Origin: Caldisericota bacterium
GTDB taxonomy: Bacteria; Caldisericota; Caldisericia; JAAYUI01
Direction: 5' to 3'
Length of the DNA: 64,000 bases
NCBI GenBank assembly: GCA_029548865.1
Contig: JAKPMO010000002.1
Location: forward strand, 160,001 to 224,000
In this document: positions 22,696 to 38,332 of the stretch, in pieces
Position numbering within the stretch: position 1 is the stretch's first letter
Layout of the letters: every line of letters starts with the position of its first letter
Translations under genes and position numbers: made by a program
Notes under the pieces: generated by a model
Seen by the model: only the letters and a program-made list of their open reading frames with translations
What the model was told of the DNA's origin: nothing
The model's database searches: none

Positions 22696-23805
22696 CTAGC
22701 CTATAACGCCGACAGAATTGTCCCTGGCCTTAAAGATGACCTCGACAATGTCCTCCGGCTTGACGCCAAACACTTTTGGCCCTGTGGCAAAAAAACTGTT
22801 TACGGCATTCAAAAGCTCTTCCCTGTCCACTTTTTTGCCCTTGAGCGCGTTTTCAAGGTTTGGAAGTGAGTCTGAAGGCATCATGAAGAAATCGCCGGAG
22901 ATGACGATGTCGTCTATGTGGTCATCCTTGATTGAGAGGGTGGTCCTGATCAGTTTGTCAGATTTGAGGTCAGCCTCGGCGATGATAAGCCCGGCCATGA
23001 CTTTTGTCCTCTTGCCAGACATGTCCATGAGCTTTTCGTGGCCCCTTGTCCTGCGGTGGAGCCATTCATCTGTTTTTGTTGTGGCAAAGATCTCTTCAAG
23101 GTTTTTCTTTTCCGCTTCGGTCATCTCGCCTTTTTCAAGCTTGACGCCCAGTTCGGTTTCAAAGACTGGCAGATACTTTTTCTGGACTTCTTCGTAGGTG
23201 AATTCTTTTCCAAGCTCCCTCTTCAGCGAAGTCATGTGTTCCCTGACGTTTTCGATTATTTTGTCCCTGAATTTTTCAGACGGGACTTTCAGTACCTGGG
23301 CCATCATCTCGACGTCCGCATCCATGATTACATTTCCGATTACAAACGAGGCCCCATGCATGTTCGCCAGGGCGTTCCCAGAGGCCTTTCTGTGGCCTAT
23401 AATTACATCATTTACCGGCTTGAATGACGCATCACAGCCAAAAGCCTTGTATGTAGAAACCGTTGGCCTGAGAAGTCTCTCTGAAACAGTGACGGGATCA
23501 CCCATGACGAGCGGGTCATCATTTTTGACAATGATGTGGTAGAAGAACTGGTATGGGTCGAGGAAAACTGCACCACCACCTGCCTGCCTTCTGACAATGG
23601 GGACATTGTTCTTTTTGCAAAAATCTTCTTCAACCTCCTTTTCCAGCAACTGGTGGACGCCGATGCACACATAAGGCGTTGCCGGGTGGCAGTTGACCAG
23701 CGTATTTGGCGAATTGCCCTTTCCAACCTCTTTTGCCACCGCTTCGTAGATGCTCTGGATTGTCCATCCATCCAGACCGCCACAATCTAGCAATCTCCAA
23801 GCCAT
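22696..23805 (-). CDS. lplA: Lipoate-protein ligase A family (catalytic plus C-terminal accessory domain)
   Basis: PYVCIG.HQ, VRRQAGGGAVFLD, NDV..RKASG, ISGDFF. SD AGGAGG. Confidence 0.88.
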   Translation of the reverse strand: MAWRLLDCGGLDGWTIQSIYEAVAKEVGKGNSPNTLVNCHPATPYVCIGVHQLLEKEVEEDFCKKNNVPIVRRQAGGGAVFLDPYQFFYHIIVKNDDPLVMGDPVTVSERLLRPTVSTYKAFGCDASFKPVNDVIIGHRKASGNALANMHGASFVIGNVIMDADVEMMAQVLKVPSEKFRDKIIENVREHMTSLKRELGKEFTYEEVQKKYLPVFETELGVKLEKGEMTEAEKKNLEEIFATTKTDEWLHRRTRGHEKLMDMSGKRTKVMAGLIIAEADLKSDKLIRTTLSIKDDHIDDIVISGDFFMMPSDSLPNLENALKGKKVDREELLNAVNSFFATGPKVFGVKPEDIVEVIFKARDNSVGVIG

Positions 23806-23906
23806 AAAACCCTCCTGTTTCACAAAATAGATTTATTTTGAATCAACGACTGCTGGTTTACTTTCTTGACAAAAGCGCCTATCTATATAAATTTATCAAG
23901 CGAGGT

Positions 23907-23982
23907 GCCTAGGTAGCTCAGTTGGTAGAGCAGTGGACTGAAAATCCTCGTGTCGGCGGTTCAAGTCCGTCCCTGGGCACCA
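23907..23982 (+). tRNA. tRNA-Phe (anticodon GAA)
   Basis: 76-nt cloverleaf GCCTAGG..CTGAAAA..GGTTCAAGTCC..CCTGGGCACCA. TTGACA at 23866 upstream. Confidence 0.96.
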
Positions 23983-23992
23983 TTTTTATTTT

Positions 23993-24406
23993 CTAGCCCT
24001 CTTCAACGTCCTCTGGTTCTGGGATGTTCTCGTATGGAAGCCCATTTCTCCTCTTGTAGTCGTTTATTGCCCTTGCAAGTGCGACTGCGCCAAGATTTGA
24101 ACAATGGATTTTGTTTGATGGCAAACCACCAAGCGCTTCCACGACTGCTTTGCTGGAGATGGAGAGCGCCTCGTCAACATTTTTCCCTTTCACCAACTCG
24201 GAAATCATTGACGAAACAGCTATTGCCGCTCCGCATCCAAACGTCTTGAACTTGATGTCGGTTATGATGCCGTCTTTTACCTTGATGTAGAACGTCATCA
24301 TGTCGCCGCAGACCGGGTTTCCAACTTCGCCAACACCGTCTGCATCATTGATCACTCCAACATTTCTCGGGTTTCTAAAATGTTCGATAACCTTCTCTGA
24401 ATACAT
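23993..24406 (-). CDS. iscU: Fe-S cluster scaffold IscU/NifU
   Basis: YSEKVIEHF.NPRNVG, GNPVCGD, FGCGAAIA, KIHCS. Confidence 0.95.
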   Translation of the reverse strand: MYSEKVIEHFRNPRNVGVINDADGVGEVGNPVCGDMMTFYIKVKDGIITDIKFKTFGCGAAIAVSSMISELVKGKNVDEALSISSKAVVEALGGLPSNKIHCSNLGAVALARAINDYKRRNGLPYENIPEPEDVEEG

Positions 24407-24409
24407 GAA

Positions 24410-25588
24410 TCACCTCGCTGGTTTGTCGGGGCCAATTGCCGACATTTCTCTTAGTTTTTTTACAATCTGCGGGAAGATCGCCATGACCTTGTCCACATGA
24501 TCCACCGTGTTGTCTTTTCCAAACGAAAACCTTATTGATCCATTTATAAACTCGTGCGGGATGCACATGGCATTGAGCACATGCGATGCGGCAAGTGATT
24601 TTGACGTGCATGCCGACCCGGAAGAGGCCTGTATGTTCCCGTCCATATCAAGAAACATAAGCATTGATTCACCCTCTGCAAATTTGATGCTGATGTTGAG
24701 CAACTGAGGTAATCTGTTTTTTTCGTCGCCGTTTACAAATACGTCCGGGATTTCATCAAAGATTCTTTTCTGGAGAGCATCCCGAAGCATTGCGGTGTAT
24801 TCCATGTGCCAGAGGAGTTTGTCTTTTGCAAGTTTTGCGGCCCACCCCATCCCCACAATTCCAGGGGTGTTATATGTTCCGGAACGGAGGTTTCTTTCGT
24901 GAGAACCACCGGTCATTACAGGGTTTAGTCTGACACCTTTTTTGACATACAGAGCACCAACACCTTTCGGACCATAAAACTTGTGGGCCGACATTGAGAG
25001 CAAATCAACACCAAGCGCCTTGACGTCAACAGGGATCTTCCCTACCGCCTGCACGGCGTCCGTATGGAATGCCACACCCCTCAGCTTGCATATCCTGGCT
25101 ATTTCCTCAACAGGTTCGATTGTCCCGACTTCATTGTTTGCCATCATGATTGAAACCAGGGATGTCTTGCCAGTTATCGCTTTTTCGACGTCTGCCGGGT
25201 TGACCCTGCCCTTTCCATCAACAGGAAGGTATATAGCTTTTGCACCGTAGTGTTTTTCAAGGTCCTGCACCGTGTGCAAAACTGCATGGTGCTCGATTGC
25301 AGATGTTATTATTTCATTTTTCTCAGGGCAAAGCCTCAAAAACAAGCCCCTGATTGCCAAGTTGTCGGATTCAGTACCACCTGATGTAAAGATTATCTCG
25401 CTTGGGCTTGCATTGATGAGCCCGGCCACTTGCAACCTTGCCTCTTCTATTGCCTCGGCCGCTTTTTGGCCCTGGGAGTGCATTGAGGAGGCATTGGCAA
25501 AAATCTCGGAAAAATAGGGCATCATCTTTTCCAGGACTTCCCCGTCAAGCGGTGTTGTGGCAGAATGGTCAAGATAAATGGAGTTCAT
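24410..25588 (-). CDS. iscS: Cysteine desulfurase IscS/NifS
   Basis: IYLDHSATTP, FTSGGTESDN, SAHKFYGPKG, SSGSACTS. ATG 25588 overlaps the upstream stop. Confidence 0.95.
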   Translation of the reverse strand: MNSIYLDHSATTPLDGEVLEKMMPYFSEIFANASSMHSQGQKAAEAIEEARLQVAGLINASPSEIIFTSGGTESDNLAIRGLFLRLCPEKNEIITSAIEHHAVLHTVQDLEKHYGAKAIYLPVDGKGRVNPADVEKAITGKTSLVSIMMANNEVGTIEPVEEIARICKLRGVAFHTDAVQAVGKIPVDVKALGVDLLSMSAHKFYGPKGVGALYVKKGVRLNPVMTGGSHERNLRSGTYNTPGIVGMGWAAKLAKDKLLWHMEYTAMLRDALQKRIFDEIPDVFVNGDEKNRLPQLLNISIKFAEGESMLMFLDMDGNIQASSGSACTSKSLAASHVLNAMCIPHEFINGSIRFSFGKDNTVDHVDKVMAIFPQIVKKLREMSAIGPDKPAR

Positions 25589-25887
25589 TTCCCCTCCTTG
25601 TCCCATAATTTGAGGCATTCATCAACATCTTCGCAATTTTTTTGTTTGCAGTTATCAAATATCTCCAGAAATTTTTTTACACCAGGAATGTTCATCTTTT
25701 TTTCATTGATGAGGAACTTGACGAGTTCGAGACGTTCAAGGTCCCTGGCGGAATAAAGCCTTCTTCCGTTGACCCTGTTCGGGGTTATGAGTCCTTTTTG
25801 TTCCCAAAGCCTGAGGGTCTGCTCACAGACCCCAAGAACATCGGCCACCGCTCCAACTGTCATTACTGGTTTCGTGTCTTCTATCAC
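25585..25887 (-). CDS. MerR-family (HspR-like) regulator with C-terminal three-Cys motif
   Basis: TVGAVADVLGV.EQTLRLWEQKGLITP.R..GRRLYS..DLERL..MNIPGVK, tail NCKQKNCEDVDEC. Confidence 0.85.
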   Translation of the reverse strand: MIEDTKPVMTVGAVADVLGVCEQTLRLWEQKGLITPNRVNGRRLYSARDLERLELVKFLINEKKMNIPGVKKFLEIFDNCKQKNCEDVDECLKLWDKEGK

Positions 25888-28744: not shown

Positions 28745-28765
28745 CAATTGCAAAGGGAGGTCCGG

Positions 28766-30139
28766 ATGAAAGAACTGTTTAGGCTGATTCCCCAGGTTTC
28801 TTCAATACTCGAGGATGAAGATTTCAAAAAAGAATATGGACATTTTGACCAGAGAATAACCTCCAGCCTTATCAGGGAGGCCCTCGATTCTGTCAGGGAC
28901 AAAATTGCTGGTGGCGAGGCACTGGATGAATCACAGGTCAAAAAACTCGTTGAGACCACACTTAAAAAGAGACTCTCCCCATTGACCAAAAGGTCATTGA
29001 AAAGAGTGATAAATGCAACCGGCATTGTTTTGCATACGAACCTTGGAAGGGCCCCAATGCTTCCCAATCTGTACCTTGCCCCCCTGCTTGAGGGCTACTG
29101 TAATCTCGAATATGACCTCGCCGAAGGGAAGAGGGGTAAAAGAGGCGTCCATGTGAAATCGGTCATCAAAATGCTTCTTGGCGCTGAATCTACCGTTGTG
29201 GTCAACAACAATGCGGCCGCAATACTCCTTCTTCTCAGGACGCATGCTGAAGGCAAGGAGGTAATTGTTTCCAGGGGCGAACTGATTGAGCTTGGCGGTT
29301 CTTTCAGATTGCCGGAAGTGATGACTGCTTCGGGGGCAATGCTTCATGAGGTTGGAACCACAAACAGGACGCACCTGAAGGATTATGCAGGAGCAATCAA
29401 TGAAAAAACCGGGCTGATCCTGAAAGTCCACCCTTCGAACTATGCAATAAGGGGGTTTGCATCTTCTCCGACAACTGCCGAGTTGTCTGCTCTGGCAAAA
29501 GAGAAGAATGTTCCATTTGTTTATGATGTTGGCTCGGGCCTTTTGCGCAAGATAGACCATCCCAATTTCAGGGAGGAGCCGGACTGCCTCTCGGCATTGA
29601 GTGATGGCGCAGATGCAATACTTTTTTCCGGTGACAAGATACTTGGCGGAACACAGGCGGGTTTTATTGTCGGAAGTGAAAAAATTGCTGGTGCCTGTGG
29701 TAAAATCCCCCTCATGAGGAGCCTGAGGCTTGCGAAGGCCCACATGTGCATGCTCGAAGAAGCATTGAGGACATGGTTGCTACCAGACAGGGAAGTCATG
29801 AAGCTGAACCCTGTCATGAGAATGATATCAATGATGCCTGAGGAGCTGGAAGCAAGGGCAAACACTCTCTCTGGGGAAATCAACAAGGCAAATCCGGCAA
29901 TCGGGTCTTTTGTAAAGAAGGTTGAAGGCTACATGGGCGGTGGCTCACTGCCTGACATCAATTTTGATTCTTATGCGGTGGCCATAAAACCAAAAGAAAC
30001 CCCTCAGTTGTTGCTGCAAAAGTTGAGAAATTCTGAAACTCCGATTGTGGCAAGGATTGAAGATGACCTTGTCCTTTTTGACATGAGAACAGTACTTGAT
30101 GGTGAAGGAGAAAAAATAGCCAGGGCACTCGCGCAATGA
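28766..30139 (+). CDS. selA: L-seryl-tRNA(Sec) selenium transferase
   Basis: VINATGIVLHTNLGRA, NLEYDL..GKRG, VNNNAAA, SRGELIELGGSFR, EVGTTN, SGDKILGG. Confidence 0.93.
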   Translation: MKELFRLIPQVSSILEDEDFKKEYGHFDQRITSSLIREALDSVRDKIAGGEALDESQVKKLVETTLKKRLSPLTKRSLKRVINATGIVLHTNLGRAPMLPNLYLAPLLEGYCNLEYDLAEGKRGKRGVHVKSVIKMLLGAESTVVVNNNAAAILLLLRTHAEGKEVIVSRGELIELGGSFRLPEVMTASGAMLHEVGTTNRTHLKDYAGAINEKTGLILKVHPSNYAIRGFASSPTTAELSALAKEKNVPFVYDVGSGLLRKIDHPNFREEPDCLSALSDGADAILFSGDKILGGTQAGFIVGSEKIAGACGKIPLMRSLRLAKAHMCMLEEALRTWLLPDREVMKLNPVMRMISMMPEELEARANTLSGEINKANPAIGSFVKKVEGYMGGGSLPDINFDSYAVAIKPKETPQLLLQKLRNSETPIVARIEDDLVLFDMRTVLDGEGEKIARALAQ

Positions 30140-31253: not shown

Positions 31254-31436
31254 TAGGCGGCTGCAAATACTCTGGGAAGATCGGATTTAATATTTCTCTA
31301 GTCGTAAAACAATCCATTAAAATTGAATAAACCAGTTTGTTTTTAAATAAAAACAAATGATAGTGGTTTATTTTTTAATGTCATGAAATGAAGACTGACA
31401 TTGACTTATTTGTGAATTTTGGCTAGAGTTGAGCAA

Positions 31437-31706
31437 GTGAAAGACAATGAAGCCAGATCATCAGTTATAAAGAGGCTCTCAAAGATAGAAGGTCAGGTGA
31501 GAGGCCTTGTGCGCATGATATCTGAAGAACGATCATGTGATGAAATAATCAATCAGATCCAGGCCGTAAAGGCCGGAATAAACAAAGTCGCAGCAATCAT
31601 CCTGGAAAGAAACATCGTTGATTGTTTAAGTCTTTCGGAAAATACAGACCAAACAGAAATTGAGAAGCTCAGAAAGCTTCTCTCCAAAATTGCAGGTAGT
31701 AAATGA
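31437..31706 (+). CDS. CsoR/RcnR family repressor, CstR-like (persulfide sensor signature)
   Basis: RLSKIEGQVRGL..CDEIINQI.AV..RNIVDC. Asn replaces the Cu-ligand His (x-C-N-C). GTG start 7 nt after a TTGACT-N17-TAGAGT promoter. Confidence 0.85.
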   Translation: MKDNEARSSVIKRLSKIEGQVRGLVRMISEERSCDEIINQIQAVKAGINKVAAIILERNIVDCLSLSENTDQTEIEKLRKLLSKIAGSK

Positions 31707-31730
31707 TATAGTTGCCGAAAGGAGCGCTTT

Positions 31731-33203
31731 GTGAAGAGAGAGCTTTTGGATGAATTGATGGGTCTTGGGATTGATATTGTATCAACACCCTTTGAATGCC
31801 AGTTTTATGGTTTTGATGTGACCCCGTTGCCGAAGGAAACCTCCTGGGTTTTTAGGGGGACAACTCCAGACGCAGTCCTCAGACCAAAAAACACCGAAGA
31901 AGTTGTCAAAATAATGGATTTTGCCAACAAGCACAAAGTCCCTGTATGTCCAAGGGGTGGCGGAACCTCTGGATATTACCAGTCGGTTCCGAGAGGCAAG
32001 GGGATTGTTATTGAAACATTGGCTTTAAATAGCATAGGTGAGCTTGACGAAAAAGAGGGACTTATCAGTGTTGGTGGTGGAGTAATATGGTCTCAGCTTG
32101 ACTGGGAATTGAAGAAAAAGGGCTGGACGCTCAAGACATACCCCACTTCCTATAAATCATCCACTGTTGCTGGCTGGACCCAGACAGAAGGCCTTGGTGT
32201 GGGAAGCCTCGCTTTTGGCTCCATAAAGAAACTGATAAAAGAGATCGAGGTTGTTCTTCCAAGCGGTGAGGTTGTATGGATCCCAAATGAAGGTCTCGTA
32301 GAAACCAAATCAGGCAACCTGAAATTTGAAGATTTTATAAAGAGTGAAGGCATGATGGGCATCATTAGCTCTGTAAAACTGGAGGTAAGGCGACTTCCTG
32401 AGTCCACTGTAACGTACCTCCTGAAATTCAAAGACAAAAATGATTTTGCACTGGTCTCTTCGCGACTGGCCGAGATTTCTTCAATATTTTTCATCGAGTT
32501 TGTAAATGGCTCTTATATGGACTTGCTTGCGCAGTCAGGCCATCATACGCCAAAACATTTGAAGGAAGAGGTGTTTGCGGTTATTAGGCTTGAAGGCGGT
32601 AAATCGGATGTTGAAAAGGGCGAGAAAGAGATTGCCGCGCTGCTTGCCGAACATACAGAAATTGCTCAGTTGCCACAGGAAGAAGCTGAGGAAGAGTACG
32701 GCTACAGATTAAAATATTTCAGAATAAAGAACGCCTACTCATCGGTAACACCAGCAGATCTGTCTGTTCCGCTCTCAAATCTTGGGCAATACCTGGACAA
32801 GGTTTCGCGCTTCAGGTTCGAATTTGCATATAAGGGCGAAATTCTAACAAAGGAGCAGTGCGGACTGATGTTTTTCTATGTCCTAGCAAACGAGCTCTCT
32901 TTTGTCAGATTCATGTCGGCTGCACCGTACCAGATGGAATTTATCCTCTCTGCGATGAAAATGGGTGGCAGCCCAAACGGTGGGATTGGATTGCTCAATA
33001 CTCCTTATATTTTTGGGTTGAGAACGCAATCAGAAAGAGAAGCATTTATCCAAAAAAAAGAGATGTTTGACCAAAACTGGATAATGAACCCTGGCAAATG
33101 GACAGATCCACCGTTTTTCCTCCGGCCATCGATTTATTTTAGTGGAATGAAACTCCTGGAGCCGGTTTGCTGGCTTGTTGGCGGGATTGTGGGGAGGTGG
33201 TAG
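31731..33203 (+). CDS. FAD-binding (PCMH) oxidoreductase, GlcD/D-lactate dehydrogenase-like
   Basis: PDAVLRP..EEV, PRGGGTS, TVAGW, SEGMMGII, FDQNWIMNPGK. SD AAGGAG. Confidence 0.8.
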   Translation: MKRELLDELMGLGIDIVSTPFECQFYGFDVTPLPKETSWVFRGTTPDAVLRPKNTEEVVKIMDFANKHKVPVCPRGGGTSGYYQSVPRGKGIVIETLALNSIGELDEKEGLISVGGGVIWSQLDWELKKKGWTLKTYPTSYKSSTVAGWTQTEGLGVGSLAFGSIKKLIKEIEVVLPSGEVVWIPNEGLVETKSGNLKFEDFIKSEGMMGIISSVKLEVRRLPESTVTYLLKFKDKNDFALVSSRLAEISSIFFIEFVNGSYMDLLAQSGHHTPKHLKEEVFAVIRLEGGKSDVEKGEKEIAALLAEHTEIAQLPQEEAEEEYGYRLKYFRIKNAYSSVTPADLSVPLSNLGQYLDKVSRFRFEFAYKGEILTKEQCGLMFFYVLANELSFVRFMSAAPYQMEFILSAMKMGGSPNGGIGLLNTPYIFGLRTQSEREAFIQKKEMFDQNWIMNPGKWTDPPFFLRPSIYFSGMKLLEPVCWLVGGIVGRW

Positions 33204-33204
33204 C

Positions 33205-34407
33205 ATGAAAAAATATGCAGCCATTGAAAAACAGGTCAGAAAATGCATACAGTGTGGCTCATGCCGTGTGGAATGTCCCACTGGTGACGATGTTGGCTGG
33301 ATTTCATGTTCTCCAAGGGCAAAAGTCCTTTTTATAAGAGACTTTCTACTTGGCCGCAAACCCACAAAAGTCAAGATGTCGGAGGAATTTGCCCAGAGGC
33401 TTTTCCAGTGCACGCTTTGTGGAAGATGTGGCGTCGAGTGCATAACGGAAATCGATTTCCCCGAGGTCTGGTTTGAAATAAGGGAGCTGGTCCAGGATGA
33501 AGGTGTTAAACTCCCGATTGTGGAAATGGTCTCCGGAATTATCAAAGACACAAAGAATGTTGCCAACCAGCCAAACGATGACAGGCCGAACTGGCTCAAG
33601 AGGGCAAAACTTGCCTCCGATCCGACAAAAGTCGAAAAGGCCGATGTTGTGTACTATGTTGGGTGCATGAGTTCCTTTTATCCGCAGTCACAGAGCATGG
33701 CCAGGGCCTTTGCCCAGATATTGGAAGCATCAGGCACAAACTTCGCAATCATGGGAACGAGCGAGCATTGCTGCGGGTTTCCGATGATTTCAACCGGAAA
33801 AGTACATGAAGCCAAAGAGTTGATGTACCATAACCAGGAAGAGATAAAGAAATATGGCGCAAAAACTGTTGTGGCCACTTGTCCAGCCTGCACCAGCATG
33901 TGGAAGAAAGAATATCCAAAGCTCTCCGGCAAACCGAATGATTTTGAAGTGATGCATGCAACCCAGTTTGTCCTGAAGCTGATGAAGGAAAATAAGCTCA
34001 AGCTCATTCCGCCAAAGCAGGAAATACAGGTGACCTTCCATGATGGGTGTGATCTTGGAAGGAACGGCGGCGTTTATGACGAGCCAAGGGAAATACTTAA
34101 AATGCTCCCTGGCGTAATGTTCACCGAGCATTCTGAAAGCAAGGACATTTCGGTTTGCTGTGGCGCCGGTGGCGACCTGCTCATGACAAATCCTGAAATG
34201 GCCGACAGGATTGGACAAAAGAGGGCAAGGAGTCTTTCTGAGGTTGCGCCAGTTGCGGTGACCTGTTGCCCGTCCTGCAAAAAACAGCTCAAAGATGCAG
34301 CAAAACATGCCGAGGTCAAACTTGACACCAAAGACCTCCTGGAAATGGTTGCAGACATGCTTGAGAAACCCGAAAAACCAGAAAAGCCAGAGAAAACAGA
34401 AGCTTGA
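33205..34407 (+). CDS. Fe-S oxidoreductase with two [4Fe-4S] motifs and two CCG domains (GlcF/HdrD-like)
   Basis: CIQCGSCRVECP, CTLCGRCGVEC, YVGC, HCCG, TCPAC, HDGC, CCGAGG, CPSC. Confidence 0.85.
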   Translation: MKKYAAIEKQVRKCIQCGSCRVECPTGDDVGWISCSPRAKVLFIRDFLLGRKPTKVKMSEEFAQRLFQCTLCGRCGVECITEIDFPEVWFEIRELVQDEGVKLPIVEMVSGIIKDTKNVANQPNDDRPNWLKRAKLASDPTKVEKADVVYYVGCMSSFYPQSQSMARAFAQILEASGTNFAIMGTSEHCCGFPMISTGKVHEAKELMYHNQEEIKKYGAKTVVATCPACTSMWKKEYPKLSGKPNDFEVMHATQFVLKLMKENKLKLIPPKQEIQVTFHDGCDLGRNGGVYDEPREILKMLPGVMFTEHSESKDISVCCGAGGDLLMTNPEMADRIGQKRARSLSEVAPVAVTCCPSCKKQLKDAAKHAEVKLDTKDLLEMVADMLEKPEKPEKPEKTEA

Positions 34408-34426
34408 TATTTACACCTAAAAAGTC

Positions 34427-34457
34427 AAAGGCCCCCATGAACATGGGGGCCTTTTTT
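34427..34457 (+). terminator. Rho-independent terminator
   Basis: AAAGGCCCCCATG-aa-CATGGGGGCCTTTTTT. Confidence 0.85.
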
Positions 34458-34548
34458 ATTTCTGGTTTTTTTATGCCTTGTTGCACAAAACAGCAAAACA
34501 AATCAAAATCAAAAAATACATTTCAGTAGAATGTATTTCAGTTGACAA

Positions 34549-35409
34549 ATGATAGACTACATCGACAAAATACAGGGTGCAATAAACTTTATGGAAGCAA
34601 GACTCAAGGAGAGAGTGGGGCTTGGTGATATTGCAAAAGAAGCCGGGTTTTCCTCTTTTCATTTCCACAGGATATTCCTTGCCAATGTCGGTGAAACGGT
34701 CACTGAGTATGTGAGAAAAAGAAGGCTTTCAGAAGCTGCGCGCGAGCTGATGGAAACCGACCACAGAATACTCGACATCGCTGTTGACTATCAATTTGAA
34801 AGCCAGCAGGCTTTCACAAGGGCCTTCAAAAAAATGTTTTTTGTACCTCCTGGGCGGTGCAGACGGGAGAAACCTGCTGTGCATCTGTTTTTCAGGAGAC
34901 GTTTGGACAGGGAAGGCCTAAGATTCCTGAGAGGAGGAGTAGTAGGAATGGAACCGAAAATTGTTGAACTTGGTGAAATAAAGGCTGTTGGAATCAGGTA
35001 TTATGGTGATAATAAAAATGGTGAGATAAAGCAAGTTTGGGACAAATTTAATAAAGATATGTGTTGCATGAAGAATGTTAGCAAGCCAGGAATAGCGCTT
35101 GGAATTTGTTCTATGATTGAGGGTGGTGACCCAGGGAAGTTTGAGTATGTTTGCTCCATGAAGGTTGACAATACCTCTGAGATACCAGATGGTATGGTTG
35201 CAAGAGTTCTTCCACCACACAAGTACCTTGTTTTTACCCACAAAGGAAAGCTCGACAACCTTGGCGAGACCTACAATTACATCTATCAGAACTGGATACC
35301 TAAATCAGGCCATGAGATTGATAGCTCGTTTGACTTTGAGCTCTATGACGACAGGTTCTGTTATGGCAAGGATGAATCAGAGTTTGACATCTATATCCCG
35401 ATAAAATAG
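34549..35409 (+). CDS. AraC family regulator with GyrI-like effector domain (Rob-like), copy 1
   Basis: FSSFHFHRIF, RKRRLSEAA, FESQQAFTRAFKK, C-terminal HKG..YNYIY..W.P..DFELYD. Confidence 0.92.
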   Translation: MIDYIDKIQGAINFMEARLKERVGLGDIAKEAGFSSFHFHRIFLANVGETVTEYVRKRRLSEAARELMETDHRILDIAVDYQFESQQAFTRAFKKMFFVPPGRCRREKPAVHLFFRRRLDREGLRFLRGGVVGMEPKIVELGEIKAVGIRYYGDNKNGEIKQVWDKFNKDMCCMKNVSKPGIALGICSMIEGGDPGKFEYVCSMKVDNTSEIPDGMVARVLPPHKYLVFTHKGKLDNLGETYNYIYQNWIPKSGHEIDSSFDFELYDDRFCYGKDESEFDIYIPIK

Positions 35410-35437
35410 TTTAATAAACCACTTCAATACGTTTAAA

Positions 35438-35470
35438 AAAAGACCCCCATGAAAGTTATGGGGGTCTTTT
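35438..35470 (+). terminator. Rho-independent terminator
   Basis: AAAAGACCCCCAT..ATGGGGGTCTTTT. Confidence 0.8.
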
Positions 35471-35553
35471 GGTTTTAATCATTGTTACACGAAATAGCAA
35501 AATAAATCAGAACAAAAAAATCGTGCTCCTATAAAATGTGTCATAGTTGGCAG

Positions 35554-36426
35554 ATGATAGACTACATCGACAAAATACAGGGTGCAATAGATTTTGTGGA
35601 AGCAAAACTCAAAGAGGATGTCAGGCTTAACGATGTTGCTTTTGAAGCTGGTTTTTCATCCTTCCACTTCCACAGGATTTTCCTTGCCAATGTCGGTGAA
35701 ACGGTCACCGAGTATGTGAGAAAAAGAAGGCTTTCAGAAGCTGCGCGCGAGCTGATGGAAACCAATCGAAGAATACTTGATATTGCTGTCGACTATCAAT
35801 TTGAAAGCCAGGAGGCTTTCACAAGGGCCTTCAAAAAAATGTTTTTTATGTCTCCAGGACAGTGCAGACGGGAGAAACCTGCTATATGTCTATTCCTTAA
35901 GAGGTGCTTAGACAGAGAAGGCCTGAAATTCATGAGAGGAGAAAAAATAGAAGTGGAATCAAAAATACTCGAACTTGGTGAAGTAAAGGCCATTGGACTC
36001 AGATGTTATGGCGATGTTAGAGAAAATGGATTGAAACAAGAAATAAAACAACTTTGGGAGAAATTCAATAAAGTGGCAAGTTCCGTAAAAAACATAAGTA
36101 AGCCCGGTGTTGCGCTTGGAATTTGTTCAATGATTGAGGGTGAGGAGCCATATATAATGGAATACGTTTGCTCTATGAAAGTCGATGATTTCTCGGATGT
36201 GCCTCGAGGAATGGTTATCAGAAAACTCTCTCCTCAAAAATATGCTGTTTTTACGCATAAAGGTAAGCTTGATAAAGTTGGGCAAACCTATGATTATATA
36301 TATCAAACATGGCTTCCCCAGTCAGGATGCGAACTCATTGATGCTCCTGATTTTGAATTATACGACGATCGGTTTGCTCCTGATAAGGATGAGTCAGAAT
36401 TTGATATCTATATCTCGATAAAATAG
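35554..36426 (+). CDS. AraC family regulator with GyrI-like effector domain, copy 2
   Basis: Paralog of 34549 with the same MIDYIDKIQGAI start. Confidence 0.92.
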   Translation: MIDYIDKIQGAIDFVEAKLKEDVRLNDVAFEAGFSSFHFHRIFLANVGETVTEYVRKRRLSEAARELMETNRRILDIAVDYQFESQEAFTRAFKKMFFMSPGQCRREKPAICLFLKRCLDREGLKFMRGEKIEVESKILELGEVKAIGLRCYGDVRENGLKQEIKQLWEKFNKVASSVKNISKPGVALGICSMIEGEEPYIMEYVCSMKVDDFSDVPRGMVIRKLSPQKYAVFTHKGKLDKVGQTYDYIYQTWLPQSGCELIDAPDFELYDDRFAPDKDESEFDIYISIK

Positions 36427-36450
36427 AATCCTGGATTTAGCAAAAAATTG

Positions 36451-36476
36451 AGGGGATGGTTTTCCATCCCCTTTTT
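36451..36476 (+). terminator. Rho-independent terminator
   Basis: AGGGGATGG-tttt-CCATCCCCTTTTT. Confidence 0.8.
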
Positions 36477-36527
36477 CCATATAATCACACCATTGCTTTT
36501 TCTTTAATGTAACCAATTTAAGAGCTA

Positions 36528-36581
36528 TTGACAAAATTATATTTCTGAGTTAATTTTGTGGCAAATACCCCATAGGGGTAT
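36528..36581 (+). promoter_or_regulatory. Sigma70 promoter plus CsoR/CstR-family operator of the dsrE-tusA operon
   Basis: TTGACA-N17-TAATTT (36528-36556), then the palindrome ATACCCC-ata-GGGGTAT (36565-36581) immediately before SD AAGGAGG. Confidence 0.82.
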
Positions 36582-36593
36582 AAAGGAGGTTGC

Positions 36594-37073
36594 ATGGCCG
36601 AGAAAGCTACCATCGTAGTGTTTTCTGGTGATCTTGACAAAGTGCTGGCCGCTTTTGTCATAGCCACGGGTTGCGCTGCCCAGGGCATGGAAGTAACGAT
36701 GTTTTATACCTTTTGGGGGCTTAATGTTGTCAAGAAGGACAAAGGCCCAATAGCAGGTGCCAAAAACTGGATGCAGAAAATGATGGGGATGATGAACAGG
36801 GGTGGCATAAGCAGATTGCCACTGTCAAAATTCAACATGGCAGGAATGGGCAGATCAATGATGAAAAAATTGATGAAAAAAACAAACGTGGCCTCACTTA
36901 GCGAAATGCTTGCGATGGCAAGAGACCTTGACGTAAAGATGTGGGCGTGCAAGATGAGCATGGATGTCATGGGTGTGGCAAAAGAAGACTTGATACCAGA
37001 AGTGGACAAGATTGTTGGTGTTGCCGCATACGCAGCAGAAGCACAACAATCCAAAATCAATCTTTTCATCTGA
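36594..37073 (+). CDS. DsrE2/DsrE3-like (YrkE-like) sulfurtransferase
   Basis: IVVFSGDLDK, MFYTFWGLN, LSKFNMAGMG, ACKMSMDVMG, NLFI. Confidence 0.9.
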   Translation: MAEKATIVVFSGDLDKVLAAFVIATGCAAQGMEVTMFYTFWGLNVVKKDKGPIAGAKNWMQKMMGMMNRGGISRLPLSKFNMAGMGRSMMKKLMKKTNVASLSEMLAMARDLDVKMWACKMSMDVMGVAKEDLIPEVDKIVGVAAYAAEAQQSKINLFI

Positions 37074-37087
37074 GGAAGGAGCCATAA

Positions 37088-37321
37088 ATGAACTTCGATG
37101 TTGAACTAAATACGCTTGGAATGCAATGCCCGGTGCCGATAGTCAAGACGGCAAAGAAGATGAAAGAACTACAAATTGGGCAGATCCTGAAAGTGATCTC
37201 TGATGATGAGGGCATAAAAGAGGACATGCCGGCATGGTGCAAGACAACCGGCAATGAATTCCTTGGCCTTGAGGAATCAGGTGGCCAGTACACTGTTTAC
37301 GTCAAGAAGGTGGTAGGGTGA
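37088..37321 (+). CDS. tusA: Sulfur carrier TusA/SirA
   Basis: LNTLGMQCPVPIV, DD..DMPAWC..TGN. Confidence 0.9.
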   Translation: MNFDVELNTLGMQCPVPIVKTAKKMKELQIGQILKVISDDEGIKEDMPAWCKTTGNEFLGLEESGGQYTVYVKKVVG

Positions 37322-37668
37322 AATTAGGGATCGTTGTTCTTACTACGCCGTACACTTTTCAGAACATGGACACAGCCATTTCACTTGCAGGTGCTGCGCT
37401 TGAAAAGGGCCACCAGGCCATGATCTTTTTGTACATGGACGGTGTTATAGCCGCATCAAACCTCATCAAGCCTGGAAATGACAGGAGCATCCCGATAAAG
37501 ATGCAGTCACTTATTGAAAAGGGTGTCAAAATAACGCCTTGTGGTGTTTGTTGTAATTACAGGGGCGTTCGCCAGGCGGACAGCCAGCCAGGCATCAAGC
37601 ATGCTGGCATTGCGGCCCTTGGTCAACTCGTGAGCGAGTGCGATAGGGTTTTGACATTGGGGTTCTAA
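37318..37668 (+). CDS. DsrE/TusD family protein
   Basis: TTPY, IFLYMDGV, CGVCCNYRG (active Cys region), CDRVLTL. Confidence 0.85.
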   Translation: MKLGIVVLTTPYTFQNMDTAISLAGAALEKGHQAMIFLYMDGVIAASNLIKPGNDRSIPIKMQSLIEKGVKITPCGVCCNYRGVRQADSQPGIKHAGIAALGQLVSECDRVLTLGF

Positions 37669-37671
37669 AAG

Positions 37672-38028
37672 ATGGCAAAAAAAGTTGCAATCGTTGTTTC
37701 AAAAGCGCCATATGGCTCAGCAATCATGGGTGAGGCATTCAGGGCGGCCATGGGTCTTCCCTCTGTTGGTTTGGAAACCAACGTTGTTCTTGAGGGAGAC
37801 GCAGTGTTCGCACTTCTAAAAGACCAAAAGCCGAAAGAAGCTCTGGATTTCGGGAGCCTTCATGATGCGTGGCTGCAATTTGAGGACTATGGGTTCAGCC
37901 TTTTTGTTCACAAGCCTTCGGTTGAAGCCAGGGGATTGACCTGTGAACAGCTTTCTCATTGCCAGACACTGGATGATTCCGAATTCAAAAAGATGCTCCG
38001 CGACATGGATGCGATATTGAGGTTCTGA
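37672..38028 (+). CDS. DsrF/TusC family protein
   Basis: KAPYGS..EAFR, GDAVFALLK.Q, SVEARG, D.ILRF. Confidence 0.82.
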   Translation: MAKKVAIVVSKAPYGSAIMGEAFRAAMGLPSVGLETNVVLEGDAVFALLKDQKPKEALDFGSLHDAWLQFEDYGFSLFVHKPSVEARGLTCEQLSHCQTLDDSEFKKMLRDMDAILRF

Positions 38029-38029
38029 C

Positions 38030-38332
38030 ATGGAAAAGAAAATGTTTATAATGCTGACAAAATCTCCATACGGGTGTGAAGAAGGCAAAATAAGGATTTC
38101 AAACGCGCTTGCCGGAGATGTGGTAGTGTTTGCCCAGGATTCGGTCTATGCGGCAACAAATCCGCCAGGCGAGCTTGCAGAATTGGTCAAGTCCAAAATG
38201 TCAGAAGGAATAAAGTTTTATGCCTCTGGGCCTGATTGCAAAGCCAGAGGTGTTGAGCCAAAATTTGGTATAAAACAAATTGGTTATCCTGAAATGATTG
38301 ATCTGATAATGGAGCGCCAGCTCTCGTATTAG
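38030..38332 (+). CDS. DsrH/TusB family protein
   Basis: KSPY, QDSVY, D.KARG, IGYPEMIDLI. Confidence 0.8.
   Translation: MEKKMFIMLTKSPYGCEEGKIRISNALAGDVVVFAQDSVYAATNPPGELAELVKSKMSEGIKFYASGPDCKARGVEPKFGIKQIGYPEMIDLIMERQLSY

Follow-up and report, generated by a model that had tools for sequence, protein, structure and literature searches.

The window analysed here is a stretch of 64,000 nucleotides from the genome of an uncultured, sludge-dwelling Caldisericota bacterium (genome G000, 1.80 Mb and 93% complete; C19:160001-224000), and wherever the sequencing runs with this stretch name a habitat, that habitat is a sludge metagenome. The subject is an operon of five sulfur-carrier genes, dsrE2-tusA-dsrE-dsrF-dsrH, which is preceded by a palindromic operator and which is likely controlled by the product of a CsoR-family repressor gene (cstR) located upstream in a separate unit. 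The repressor is likely a persulfide sensor of the CstR type. For comparison we used the family to which the host belongs (f1), comprising 11 genomes in three genera (g1 with four genomes, G000 among them; g2 with four; g3 with three), and, as an outgroup, the genomes G014 and G083, two congeners from another family with completeness of 97% and 75%.

Gene content of the locus

The + strand carries, in order, speD, the csoR-like gene, a gene for a flavin adenine dinucleotide (FAD) oxidoreductase, a gene for an iron-sulfur (Fe-S)/CCG protein, a hairpin, an araC-gyrI gene, a second hairpin, a second araC-gyrI gene, a third hairpin, dsrE2-tusA-dsrE-dsrF-dsrH, and rpsB-tsf. Scans with Pfam and NCBIfam recovered all eight genes named in an earlier sequence-only reading of this DNA, with Pfam supporting each of the five carrier genes at 36594-38332. 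The CsoR-family gene with its C..N-x3-C fingerprint does head a unit with a flavoprotein and a 2x[4Fe-4S]/2xCCG protein, and the cysteines that reading had pointed out are present. The features are as follows, with the Shine-Dalgarno sequence abbreviated as SD and open reading frame as ORF.

31401..31429, + strand: predicted sigma-70 promoter of the cstR-FAD-CCG unit, TTGACT-17-TAGAGT (promoter scan; starts lacking an SD are also seen in relatives)
31437..31706 (longest ORF from 31419), + strand: CstR-like CsoR-family repressor (PF02583)
31731..33203, + strand: FAD oxidoreductase of the VAO/PCMH fold, FAD_binding_4/FAD-oxidase_C (Pfam domains, alignment, fold model)
33205..34407, + strand: 2x[4Fe-4S] + 2xCCG protein, TfrB/HdrD-like below cut-off (profile scan; ten CCG cysteines invariant)
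34427..34454, + strand: intrinsic-terminator-like hairpin ending the cstR-FAD-CCG unit (hairpin scan)
34549..35409, + strand: AraC/GyrI-like (Rob-type) regulator, copy 1, outside the conserved units (Pfam, relatives)
35438..35470, + strand: terminator-like hairpin 3' of AraC copy 1 (hairpin scan)
35554..36426, + strand: AraC/GyrI-like regulator, copy 2 (Pfam, relatives)
36451-36472, - strand: third hairpin, terminator-like on this strand (hairpin scan)
36528..36556, + strand: predicted promoter of the carrier operon, TTGACA-17-TAATTT (TTGACA kept in the family; weak -10)
36565..36581, no strand: CstR/CsoR-type operator ATACCCC-N3-GGGGTAT over the predicted +1 (motif search, relatives, published operator)
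36584-36589, + strand: SD AGGAGG (sequence)
36594..37073, + strand: dsrE2, a DsrE2/YrkE-type carrier with invariant Cys119 (PF13686)
37088..37321, + strand: tusA, with a CPxP motif and invariant Cys14 (PF01206)
37318..37668, + strand: dsrE (DsrE/TusD-like), with Cys75 within CxxC (PF02635, alignment)
37672..38028, + strand: dsrF (DsrF/TusC-like) (PF02635)
38030..38332, + strand: dsrH (DsrH/TusB-like), above the TIGR03011 cut-off (PF04077)

The sequence-only reading had treated the locus as a single cluster, with the carriers beginning about 2 kb after the CCG gene. The carriers do lie downstream, but the gap holds two AraC genes and three hairpins which that reading left out, and therefore at least two separate transcription units are expected. 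The idea of a single cluster is further undermined by the lack of an operator at cstR-FAD-CCG and by the fact that the two halves are unlinked in one of the three genera.

A conserved operator precedes the carrier operon

The palindrome ATACCCC-ATA-GGGGTAT occupies 36565-36581, with 37 nt separating it from the start of TTGACA (36528) and 12 nt from the ATG of dsrE2, and it does lie between the promoter and the SD as had been proposed. A search for further copies, which had been suggested as a check, found this to be the only exact copy of the 17-bp palindrome in the 1.80 Mb genome, with 0.005 expected by chance. The palindrome is present before dsrE2 in every family genome (11/11, exact in 10 and with one mismatch in the remaining one), and in the nine relatives measured it stands 34-38 nt after TTGACA, although the flanking DNA diverges. 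The -10 element, TAATTT, falls under the threshold of the promoter scanner. When compared with the core of the Streptococcus mitis CstR operator, ATACCCTTATGGGGTAT, given in the accessible part of bioRxiv 2021.07.25.453692, the window operator differs in one arm base.

The two outgroup genomes carry the same five-gene operon, where the best operator matches have 5 mismatches (G014) and 6 mismatches (G083), and neither genome, at 97% and 75% completeness, yielded a PF02583 gene or an operator. Because G014 and G083 are congeners, the joint absence of operator and repressor counts as one event. The sequence-only reading had assigned control of dsrE2-tusA-dsrEFH to the CstR-like repressor, and this is very likely given a site in 11/11 genomes, its match to a CstR operator, the status of the repressor as the sole CsoR, and the joint absence of both from 2/2 outgroup genomes.

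Assembled sequencing runs provide a weak hint of a transcription start at the operator. Five runs recorded as RNA, which come from four studies, have contigs starting at 36522, 36543, 36575, 36578 and 36582 and showing no loose end at these points, and two DNA-like or unlabelled runs read through the operator region. All five carrier genes are found on one contig in 3/5 of the RNA runs, which is no proof of a single transcript. Depth in the RNA runs was set aside, as contig depth cannot rank genes, and an uncovered bin at 34438-34754 in four RNA runs was not counted as evidence.

We also examined 40 regions around operator-like matches in relatives, and most of the matches fell within ORFs. 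The match at C17:50335 and its orthologues were rejected as operators because they lie inside coding sequence. Another match (G001:C12, L059:~450-560) sits in an apparent CRISPR spacer between two direct repeats and is probably due to chance.

The repressor carries the fingerprint of a persulfide sensor

The CsoR-family ORF matches PF02583 at 77.9 bits, against a gathering score of 22.8, and is the sole PF02583 gene in G000, just as there is one such gene per genome in all 11 family genomes. Its fingerprint residues, counted from the TTG, are Cys40, Asn65 and Cys69, and a serine precedes Cys40. Persulfide sensors have been defined by the pattern x-C-x-C (bioRxiv 10.1101/2021.07.25.453692, accessible part) and fall in the published CsoR similarity clusters 3, 4 and 10. 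Two cysteines with no histidine and no second-shell tyrosine are found in 11/11 family repressors: Cys40 and Cys69 are kept, the histidine position is held by asparagine in 4 and by lysine in 7, and the tyrosine before the first cysteine is lost in all of them. The asparagine of the window repressor aligns with the residue altered in PDB 7MQ3 relative to 7MQ1, which is N55 of Streptococcus pneumoniae CstR (same source). The arrangement typical of copper-sensing CsoRs, x-C-H-C with a tyrosine and a gene beside copA/copZ, was not found for the window repressor. As for the other Caldisericia CsoRs of our first set, 17/19 have the pattern Y-C..H..C, and among the matches listed most such CsoRs precede heavy-metal-ATPase-like ORFs. 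A CsoR tree grouped the 11 family proteins together (92/87, not starred), but because it has long branches and includes no characterised CstR, it shows only the family grouping.

The cstR start codon, a GTG, lies 7 nt past the -10 element and has no SD, so the message is probably leaderless. Genera g1 and g3 share this SD-less start with its 7-nt spacing from the -10 (31401-31439 in the window), and in 3/4 of the g2 genomes the spacing is about 10 nt. In a sister family, f2, trxA and an HrcA-like gene are immediately preceded by a second CsoR-family gene without the histidine (L215-L221); the second cysteine of its product is one column off in the alignment, so the label C..NxxxC needs care, and no operator was seen near the gene.

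Genome-wide search for further operator sites

A matrix made from nine distinct dsrE2 sites of relatives was run on the regions upstream of the 1464 called genes of G000, for which the background scores had a median of 0.5 and a 99th percentile of 10.8 bits. The top scores belonged to dsrE2 (27.8 bits), a gene pair for a protein-disulfide oxidoreductase (PDO) and a thioredoxin, PDO-trxA (19.6), C19:303241 (18.8, counting for two genes), C3:14231 (17.1) and a NapH-like gene (16.0), with PDO-trxA ranking 2nd and the NapH-like gene 6th among the 1464. The PDO site is found outside the window at C27:3966 (L100), 103 nt before a gene for a one-CxxC PDO followed by the thioredoxin gene, and a site precedes PDO in 4/4 genomes where PDO was found, one of them in g2.

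The NapH-like site lies at C23:39244 (L099), before a gene for a NapH/MauN-like membrane ferredoxin (an annotation below cut-off), and the operon continues with genes for a 276-aa partner, an Mrp/NBP35 ATPase and a DUF1858 protein. The site is present in 7/11 orthologues (4/4 in g1, 3/3 in g3 and 0/4 in g2) and in 1/5 of the NapH-like paralogues scored (G010), while eight NapH-like homologues of other families have no site (<=6.2 bits). A search of the ESM Atlas with the NapH partner returned nothing above 0.82. In G000 itself, no site was found before the copA-like ATPase gene (5.6 bits), before iscS, mnmA or trxB (<=6.3 bits; trxB named by motif only), before hdrC (4.0 bits) or before the rhodanese gene. 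As such, the predicted CstR targets are sulfur and thiol genes (dsrE2-tusA-dsrEFH and PDO-trxA), not metal efflux genes.

Of the remaining high-scoring sites, the one at C19:303241 lies between a gene for a secreted 203-aa protein and gltX, with similar sequence in three congeners, and the one at C3:14231 lies before a gene for a secreted 572-aa protein.

Several observations weigh against a CstR-type regulon of this kind. Overall similarity does not favour CstR, as InrS, CsoR and SpCstR fall within 5 bits of one another in a PDB search, and the nearest database matches of the repressor are InrS and copper CsoRs. When eight plasmid BLAST matches were inspected, five were beside copper genes and one beside thioredoxin, and the repressor matched no CstR-named NCBIfam model. 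No operator was found upstream of cstR in 11/11 genomes (best score <=0.8 bits), so by predicted sites autoregulation is absent here, in contrast to YrkD, whose binding sites include the region upstream of yrkD (PMC9918477, accessible part). In G036, a near-identical site (23.2 bits) belongs to a histidine-bearing CsoR that precedes a copper-type ATPase, and because a copper CsoR shares this type of site, the type of palindrome does not identify the inducer. PDO is found in only 4/11 family genomes, and where trxA occurs without PDO (six genes) no site precedes it (<=3.5 bits), so a PDO/trxA sink is not co-regulated across the family. Finally, a reversed control, from a slightly different matrix, reached 16.6 bits and gave 21 sites above 11 bits against 10 real ones; single-genome scores of about 16-17 therefore mean little without conservation, and the NapH-like site at 16.0 bits rests on its conservation. 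As similarity, plasmid matches, models and the G036 site do not single out CstR, the inducer is inferred from the fingerprint and the targets, which together make a CstR-type persulfide sensor the likely identity of the repressor.

Sulfur carriers without DsrC

The order dsrE2-tusA-dsrE-dsrF-dsrH is kept in 11/11 family genomes (in G003 across a contig break) and also in G014 and G083, and DsrE was found in 7/30 other genomes of the class. Three syntenic DsrE/F/H homologues with the active cysteine in DsrE, the arrangement of DsrEFH/TusBCD, are present, and Cys75 of the window DsrE aligns with the active cysteine of Allochromatium vinosum DsrE. Against the equivalog models, TusD scored 51.9 of 89, TusC 49.3 of 94 and TusB 52.5 of 49.2, the sole pass. 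The window tusA is the only TusA gene in G000.

The sequence-only reading had noted no dsrC/tusE or dsrAB at the locus, and this holds on a wider scale: DsrC was not found in any of the 11 family genomes, two of which are single contigs, and no NIR_SIR-family sulfite reductase was found in G000 at 93% completeness. That a tusE/mnmA pathway elsewhere might account for TusBCD had also been raised. Of its two parts mnmA is present in G000, but TusE/DsrC was not found, and the MnmA is of the CxxC-C type, which in Thermus thermophilus relies on Fe-S and takes its sulfur straight from cysteine desulfurases (PMC7025502, accessible part). Because there is no DsrC and the MnmA is of this type, the Dsr and TusE-MnmA routes are both unlikely, in keeping with the earlier suggestion that the relay serves neither Dsr nor 2-thiouridine synthesis.

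Neither PF04143 (YeeE) nor a GcvH/LbpA-type lipoyl carrier was found in G000, the latter despite a lipoate-protein-ligase-like gene, and the combination of yeeE/yedE, tusA and dsrE that marks YTD clusters is thus not seen there. That combination was found at five other Caldisericia loci, and YTD-like tusA-yeeE-dsrE-dsrF-dsrH clusters occur in other Caldisericia families (L017-L022; G036, G027, G029, G024, G013, G019). Among the genomes studied in PMC12998232, the accessible text reports YTD clusters only from Desulfobacterota, Nitrospirota and Acidobacteriota.

The FAD/CCG oxidoreductase

The sequence-only reading had placed the FAD/CCG oxidoreductase in the same regulon, and this part of it is not supported: the unit has no operator in 11/11 genomes, is unlinked from the carriers in 4/11, and is absent from G014. 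Within the family, cstR-FAD-CCG forms one three-gene unit in 11/11 genomes, even where the flanks change, and no site was found inside the unit in the 10/10 genomes scanned (<=9.1 bits, against a background 95th percentile of 11.4). The unit is within about 8 kb of the carriers in 7/11 genomes from two genera, with one or two araC genes between them in g1 and about 5 other ORFs between them in g3 (in G005 across a contig break). Among the g2 genomes, two are single contigs, where 406 kb and about 58 kb separate the unit from the carriers, and in the other two the unit and the carriers are on different contigs with different flanks. Linkage of the oxidoreductase pair to dsrE/tusA in relatives, on which the earlier proposal had staked its case, therefore fails in 4/11 genomes.

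The flavoprotein had been described as GlcD-like and as part of an organic-acid-driven route. The fold is right: the predicted structure (predicted local distance difference test score, pLDDT, 83) gave template modelling (TM) scores of 0.70-0.78 to LDHD, AGPS and LctD at about 20% identity. The closer assignment is not, as the GlcD profile scored 133 bits against a cut-off of 568, and the His..His / Glu-His motif by which LctD binds its catalytic metal was not found in the alignment, where conserved Arg/Lys stand instead. Because the flavoprotein lacks this 2-hydroxyacid metal motif, the organic-acid-driven route is unsupported. Close orthologues of the flavoprotein (>=56% identity) are confined to f1, with none in G014. 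In profile searches, 33/37 matches were FAD-FeS-CCG fusions of about 1000-1125 aa (E<1e-74), of which the flavoprotein corresponds to the N-terminal half; the FAD and CCG pair is therefore the two-gene version of a wider, as yet unnamed family of fusions of about 1025 aa. A scan of the genome collection with the flavoprotein found 3 loci, all congeners at 93-96% identity. Of the 52 loci from a metagenome scan, one was a 1.6-kb contig at 30% identity and the other 51 were fragments or generic FAD-oxidase matches. The ESM Atlas returned generic FAD-oxidase clusters only.

In the CCG protein, the ten cysteines that two noncubane clusters require are all present, and against the TfrB model it scored 193 bits (cut-off 385). 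It does not have the threonine and histidine changes seen in EtfD, which make the EtfD clusters non-catalytic according to the accessible part of PMC13083937, where CCG domains are also described in plain electron transfer. Disulfide chemistry at the CCG subunit is thus possible. A second FAD/CCG pair in G000 (C9:53015-55572, L102) lies upstream of an aldehyde-dehydrogenase-like gene, and its flavoprotein also lacks the Glu-His motif. Because the same cysteines occur in this paralogue, which has no sulfur genes beside it, the CCG cysteines are not diagnostic of disulfide chemistry.

Proposed mechanism and alternatives

Taken together, we propose a CstR regulon acting in trans, in which the carriers would bind sulfane sulfur that is then cleared reductively as sulfide, and we place the probability of this whole chain at about 0.5. 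By homology, sulfane sulfur would cross-link Cys40 and Cys69 of the repressor, which would release its DNA and lift repression at the +1 of the carrier operon and also at the PDO-trxA and NapH-like operons. TusA-Cys14 would exchange sulfur with DsrE-Cys75 and DsrE2-Cys119, and DsrE, DsrF and DsrH would form one complex, again as in their homologues; TusA-DsrEFH sulfur transfer is bidirectional in vitro (PMC13293266, accessible part). The step that we hold least firmly is the last, in which sulfur would leave as sulfide via PDO/thioredoxin and not by way of Dsr or tRNA thiolation. The cstR-FAD-CCG genes would form a separate unit that is not repressed by CstR. The regulatory step on its own, a persulfide-responsive repressor controlling the carrier, PDO-trxA and NapH-like operons, is quite probable.

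A different ending for the same chain is that the FAD/CCG pair is the terminal step, using its noncubane clusters to reduce persulfide bound to TusA or DsrE, in place of the CoA-persulfide reductase (CoADR) of the sister families. A CoADR orthologue is found in 8/8 f2 and 7/8 f3 genomes, and both families have CoADR-rhodanese-TusA-DsrE2 fusions of about 810-845 aa (L223-L227, L230), with no operator-like site in the stretches fetched around them; within f1, the search for CoADR gave two weak matches of 29-30% in 10 relatives and none in G000. With the FAD orthologue found only in f1, the pair always co-encoded with cstR (11/11) and often near the carriers, and the ten cysteines kept without EtfD-type changes, the hand-over of sulfur to the CCG enzyme stays a candidate, because cstR-FAD-CCG moves as one unit and carries ten Hdr-type cysteines. 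It also has a parallel in Aquifex, where TusA co-purifies sHdrB1/B2/C1 (PMC11094781, accessible part). Set against this are the missing operator, the four genomes in which the unit is unlinked, the use of CCG domains for plain electron transfer, the C9 pair with the same ten cysteines and no sulfur genes nearby, and G014, which has the operon with neither the FAD/CCG enzyme nor CoADR. Such a terminal step is unlikely on this balance, and so is the claim that the pair would represent a new kind of protein-persulfide reductase drawing on TusA/DsrEFH with no DsrC and no CoA.

The carriers might instead belong to a biosynthetic relay running from IscS through TusA and DsrEFH to molybdenum cofactor (Moco), Fe-S or tRNA enzymes, with the repressor reporting general thiol oxidation. 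This operon does hold the only TusA gene of the genome, iscS-iscU lies within the window at 23993-25618, and the NapH-like operon runs into the Mrp/NBP35 Fe-S carrier gene with a Moco-type oxidoreductase gene nearby. The relay is nevertheless improbable, with no site before iscS, mnmA or trxB, no TusE/DsrC, an MnmA of a type not known to need Tus proteins, and carrier genes that are patchy outside the family, unlike a housekeeping route.

HdrABC-Mvh is a second candidate sink, because HdrB is present in 11/11 family genomes; the carriers would then feed a cytoplasmic MvhAGD-HdrABC that reduces protein-bound persulfide or disulfide with H2. About 31-41 kb separate dsrE2 from an hdrC-hdrB-...-hdrA-mvh cluster (C19:228-238 kb), and sHdr systems always occur with DsrE/TusA carriers (PMC11094781, accessible part). 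However, that cluster does not adjoin the carriers and no operator precedes hdrC, nor was the lipoyl carrier found in the 93% complete genome, so this sink is quite improbable as well. The gene order of the cluster (C19:227878-238470, L101) is hdrC, hdrB, an NAD(P)H oxidoreductase gene, a ferredoxin gene, an mvhD-like gene, a large hdrA, mvhG and mvhA.

Last, that the repressor senses a metal or other ligand, or that another protein reads the palindrome, is very improbable, for although C/G-tract sites of this kind also serve copper CsoRs (G036) and the nearest database matches are InrS and copper CsoRs, the histidine and tyrosine are missing in 11/11 repressors, the targets are sulfur/thiol genes with the copA-like gene siteless, and site and repressor are jointly absent in G014 and G083.

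Comparison with known systems

The proposed persulfide-responsive regulon has its closest counterpart in Bacillus licheniformis, where elemental sulfur releases the CstR homologue YrkD, the repressor of yrkE (a DsrE homologue), yrkI (a TusA homologue) and a thioredoxin gene (PMC9918477, accessible part). Both regulons place a two-cysteine, CstR-homologous repressor over a DsrE-family carrier, TusA and a thioredoxin gene. In contrast to the YrkD regulon, the one described here has the full DsrE-F-H triad and a NapH-like ferredoxin, the window operon contains no rhodanese, persulfide dioxygenase, TauE or SQR, and the repressor would act in trans with no site before its own gene. With the CstRs of S. 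pneumoniae, S. mitis, Enterococcus faecalis and Staphylococcus aureus, the window repressor shares x-C-x-C, an asparagine four residues before the second cysteine and a cysteine spacing of 29, and the 17-bp operators are one arm base apart. The operons of those CstRs, however, encode rhodaneses and CoA-persulfide reductase, whereas no CoADR orthologue was found in G000, and in overall sequence the window repressor is no closer to them than to InrS or copper CsoR, with lysine in place of the asparagine in 7/11 family members.

As in DsrEFH type I (A. vinosum, 2HY5), TusBCD (Escherichia coli, 2D1P) and DsrEFH type II/YTD (PMC13293266, accessible part), three genes of the DsrE/F/H fold stand beside tusA, with the active cysteine in DsrE alone. 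The differences are that no DsrC/TusE, DsrAB or YeeE was found in G000, that the window DsrE has CxxC, that a dsrE2 gene leads the operon, and that control is predicted to run through a CstR-type operator. DsrE/TusA carriers in an anaerobic fermenter without DsrC are also known from Thermotoga maritima, in which our control search found no DsrC and in which thiosulfate induces a yeeE/dsrE/tusA unit (PMC9431562, accessible part). The DsrE proteins of the Caldisericia yeeE clusters are 38-43% identical to the window DsrE and have the CxxC in common with it. Those clusters and the T. maritima unit include the YeeE importer, which thiosulfate induces 42.6-fold in T. maritima, whereas here DsrE2 stands in its place with no linked import gene. 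The FAD/CCG pair resembles HdrD/TfrB/DsrK, EtfD and the GlcD/LctD-fold flavoproteins in its 2x[4Fe-4S] + 2xCCG architecture and VAO/PCMH fold, but it falls under every NCBIfam cut-off and its flavoprotein lacks the LctD motif.

We found no report linking a CstR/CsoR operator to dsrEFH, or of a Caldisericota case, in a search outside of which most subscription literature lay. One supplement of PMC13293266 contains no Caldiseric or Thermotog string, and the genome lists in its other supplements may cover the lineage.

Other features of the window

The two AraC/GyrI-like genes between the units (34549-36426) are a tandem duplication with repeated upstream and terminator sequence; the copies share 209 identical residues, and congeners have one or two copies, with a single copy in G002 and G003. 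A selenocysteine synthase gene, selA, lies at 28748-30139, three genes upstream of cstR in g1 and g3. On the - strand, 22696-25887 holds a MerR-like ORF, iscS/nifS, iscU and the lipoate-protein-ligase-like gene in a row.

Significance

In kind, the finding would be a CstR-type sulfane-sulfur regulon built on a DsrC-less DsrEFH, with parts and logic that are already known. In general, dsrAB co-occurs in 75.9+2.4% of the type I and 73.9+4.7% of the type II DsrEFH genomes, leaving about 1/5 of DsrEFH genomes without dsrAB (100 minus these co-occurrence figures; PMC13293266, accessible part). A conserved CstR-type operator would tie DsrC-less DsrEFH to persulfide sensing and would extend CstR-type regulation to Caldisericota. 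It also points to PDO/thioredoxin and the NapH-like ferredoxin as likely co-regulated partners and to two candidate terminal enzymes. The carriers, as small soluble proteins, can be assayed in E. coli. A word of caution follows for annotation, in that dsrEFH should not be read as a marker of sulfur oxidation in such genomes. Only if the FAD/CCG enzyme turned out to be the sink would the system be more than moderately surprising; as a persulfide reductase, it would provide a terminal enzyme for DsrC-less DsrEFH and a function for the family of FAD-FeS-CCG proteins of about 1025 aa.

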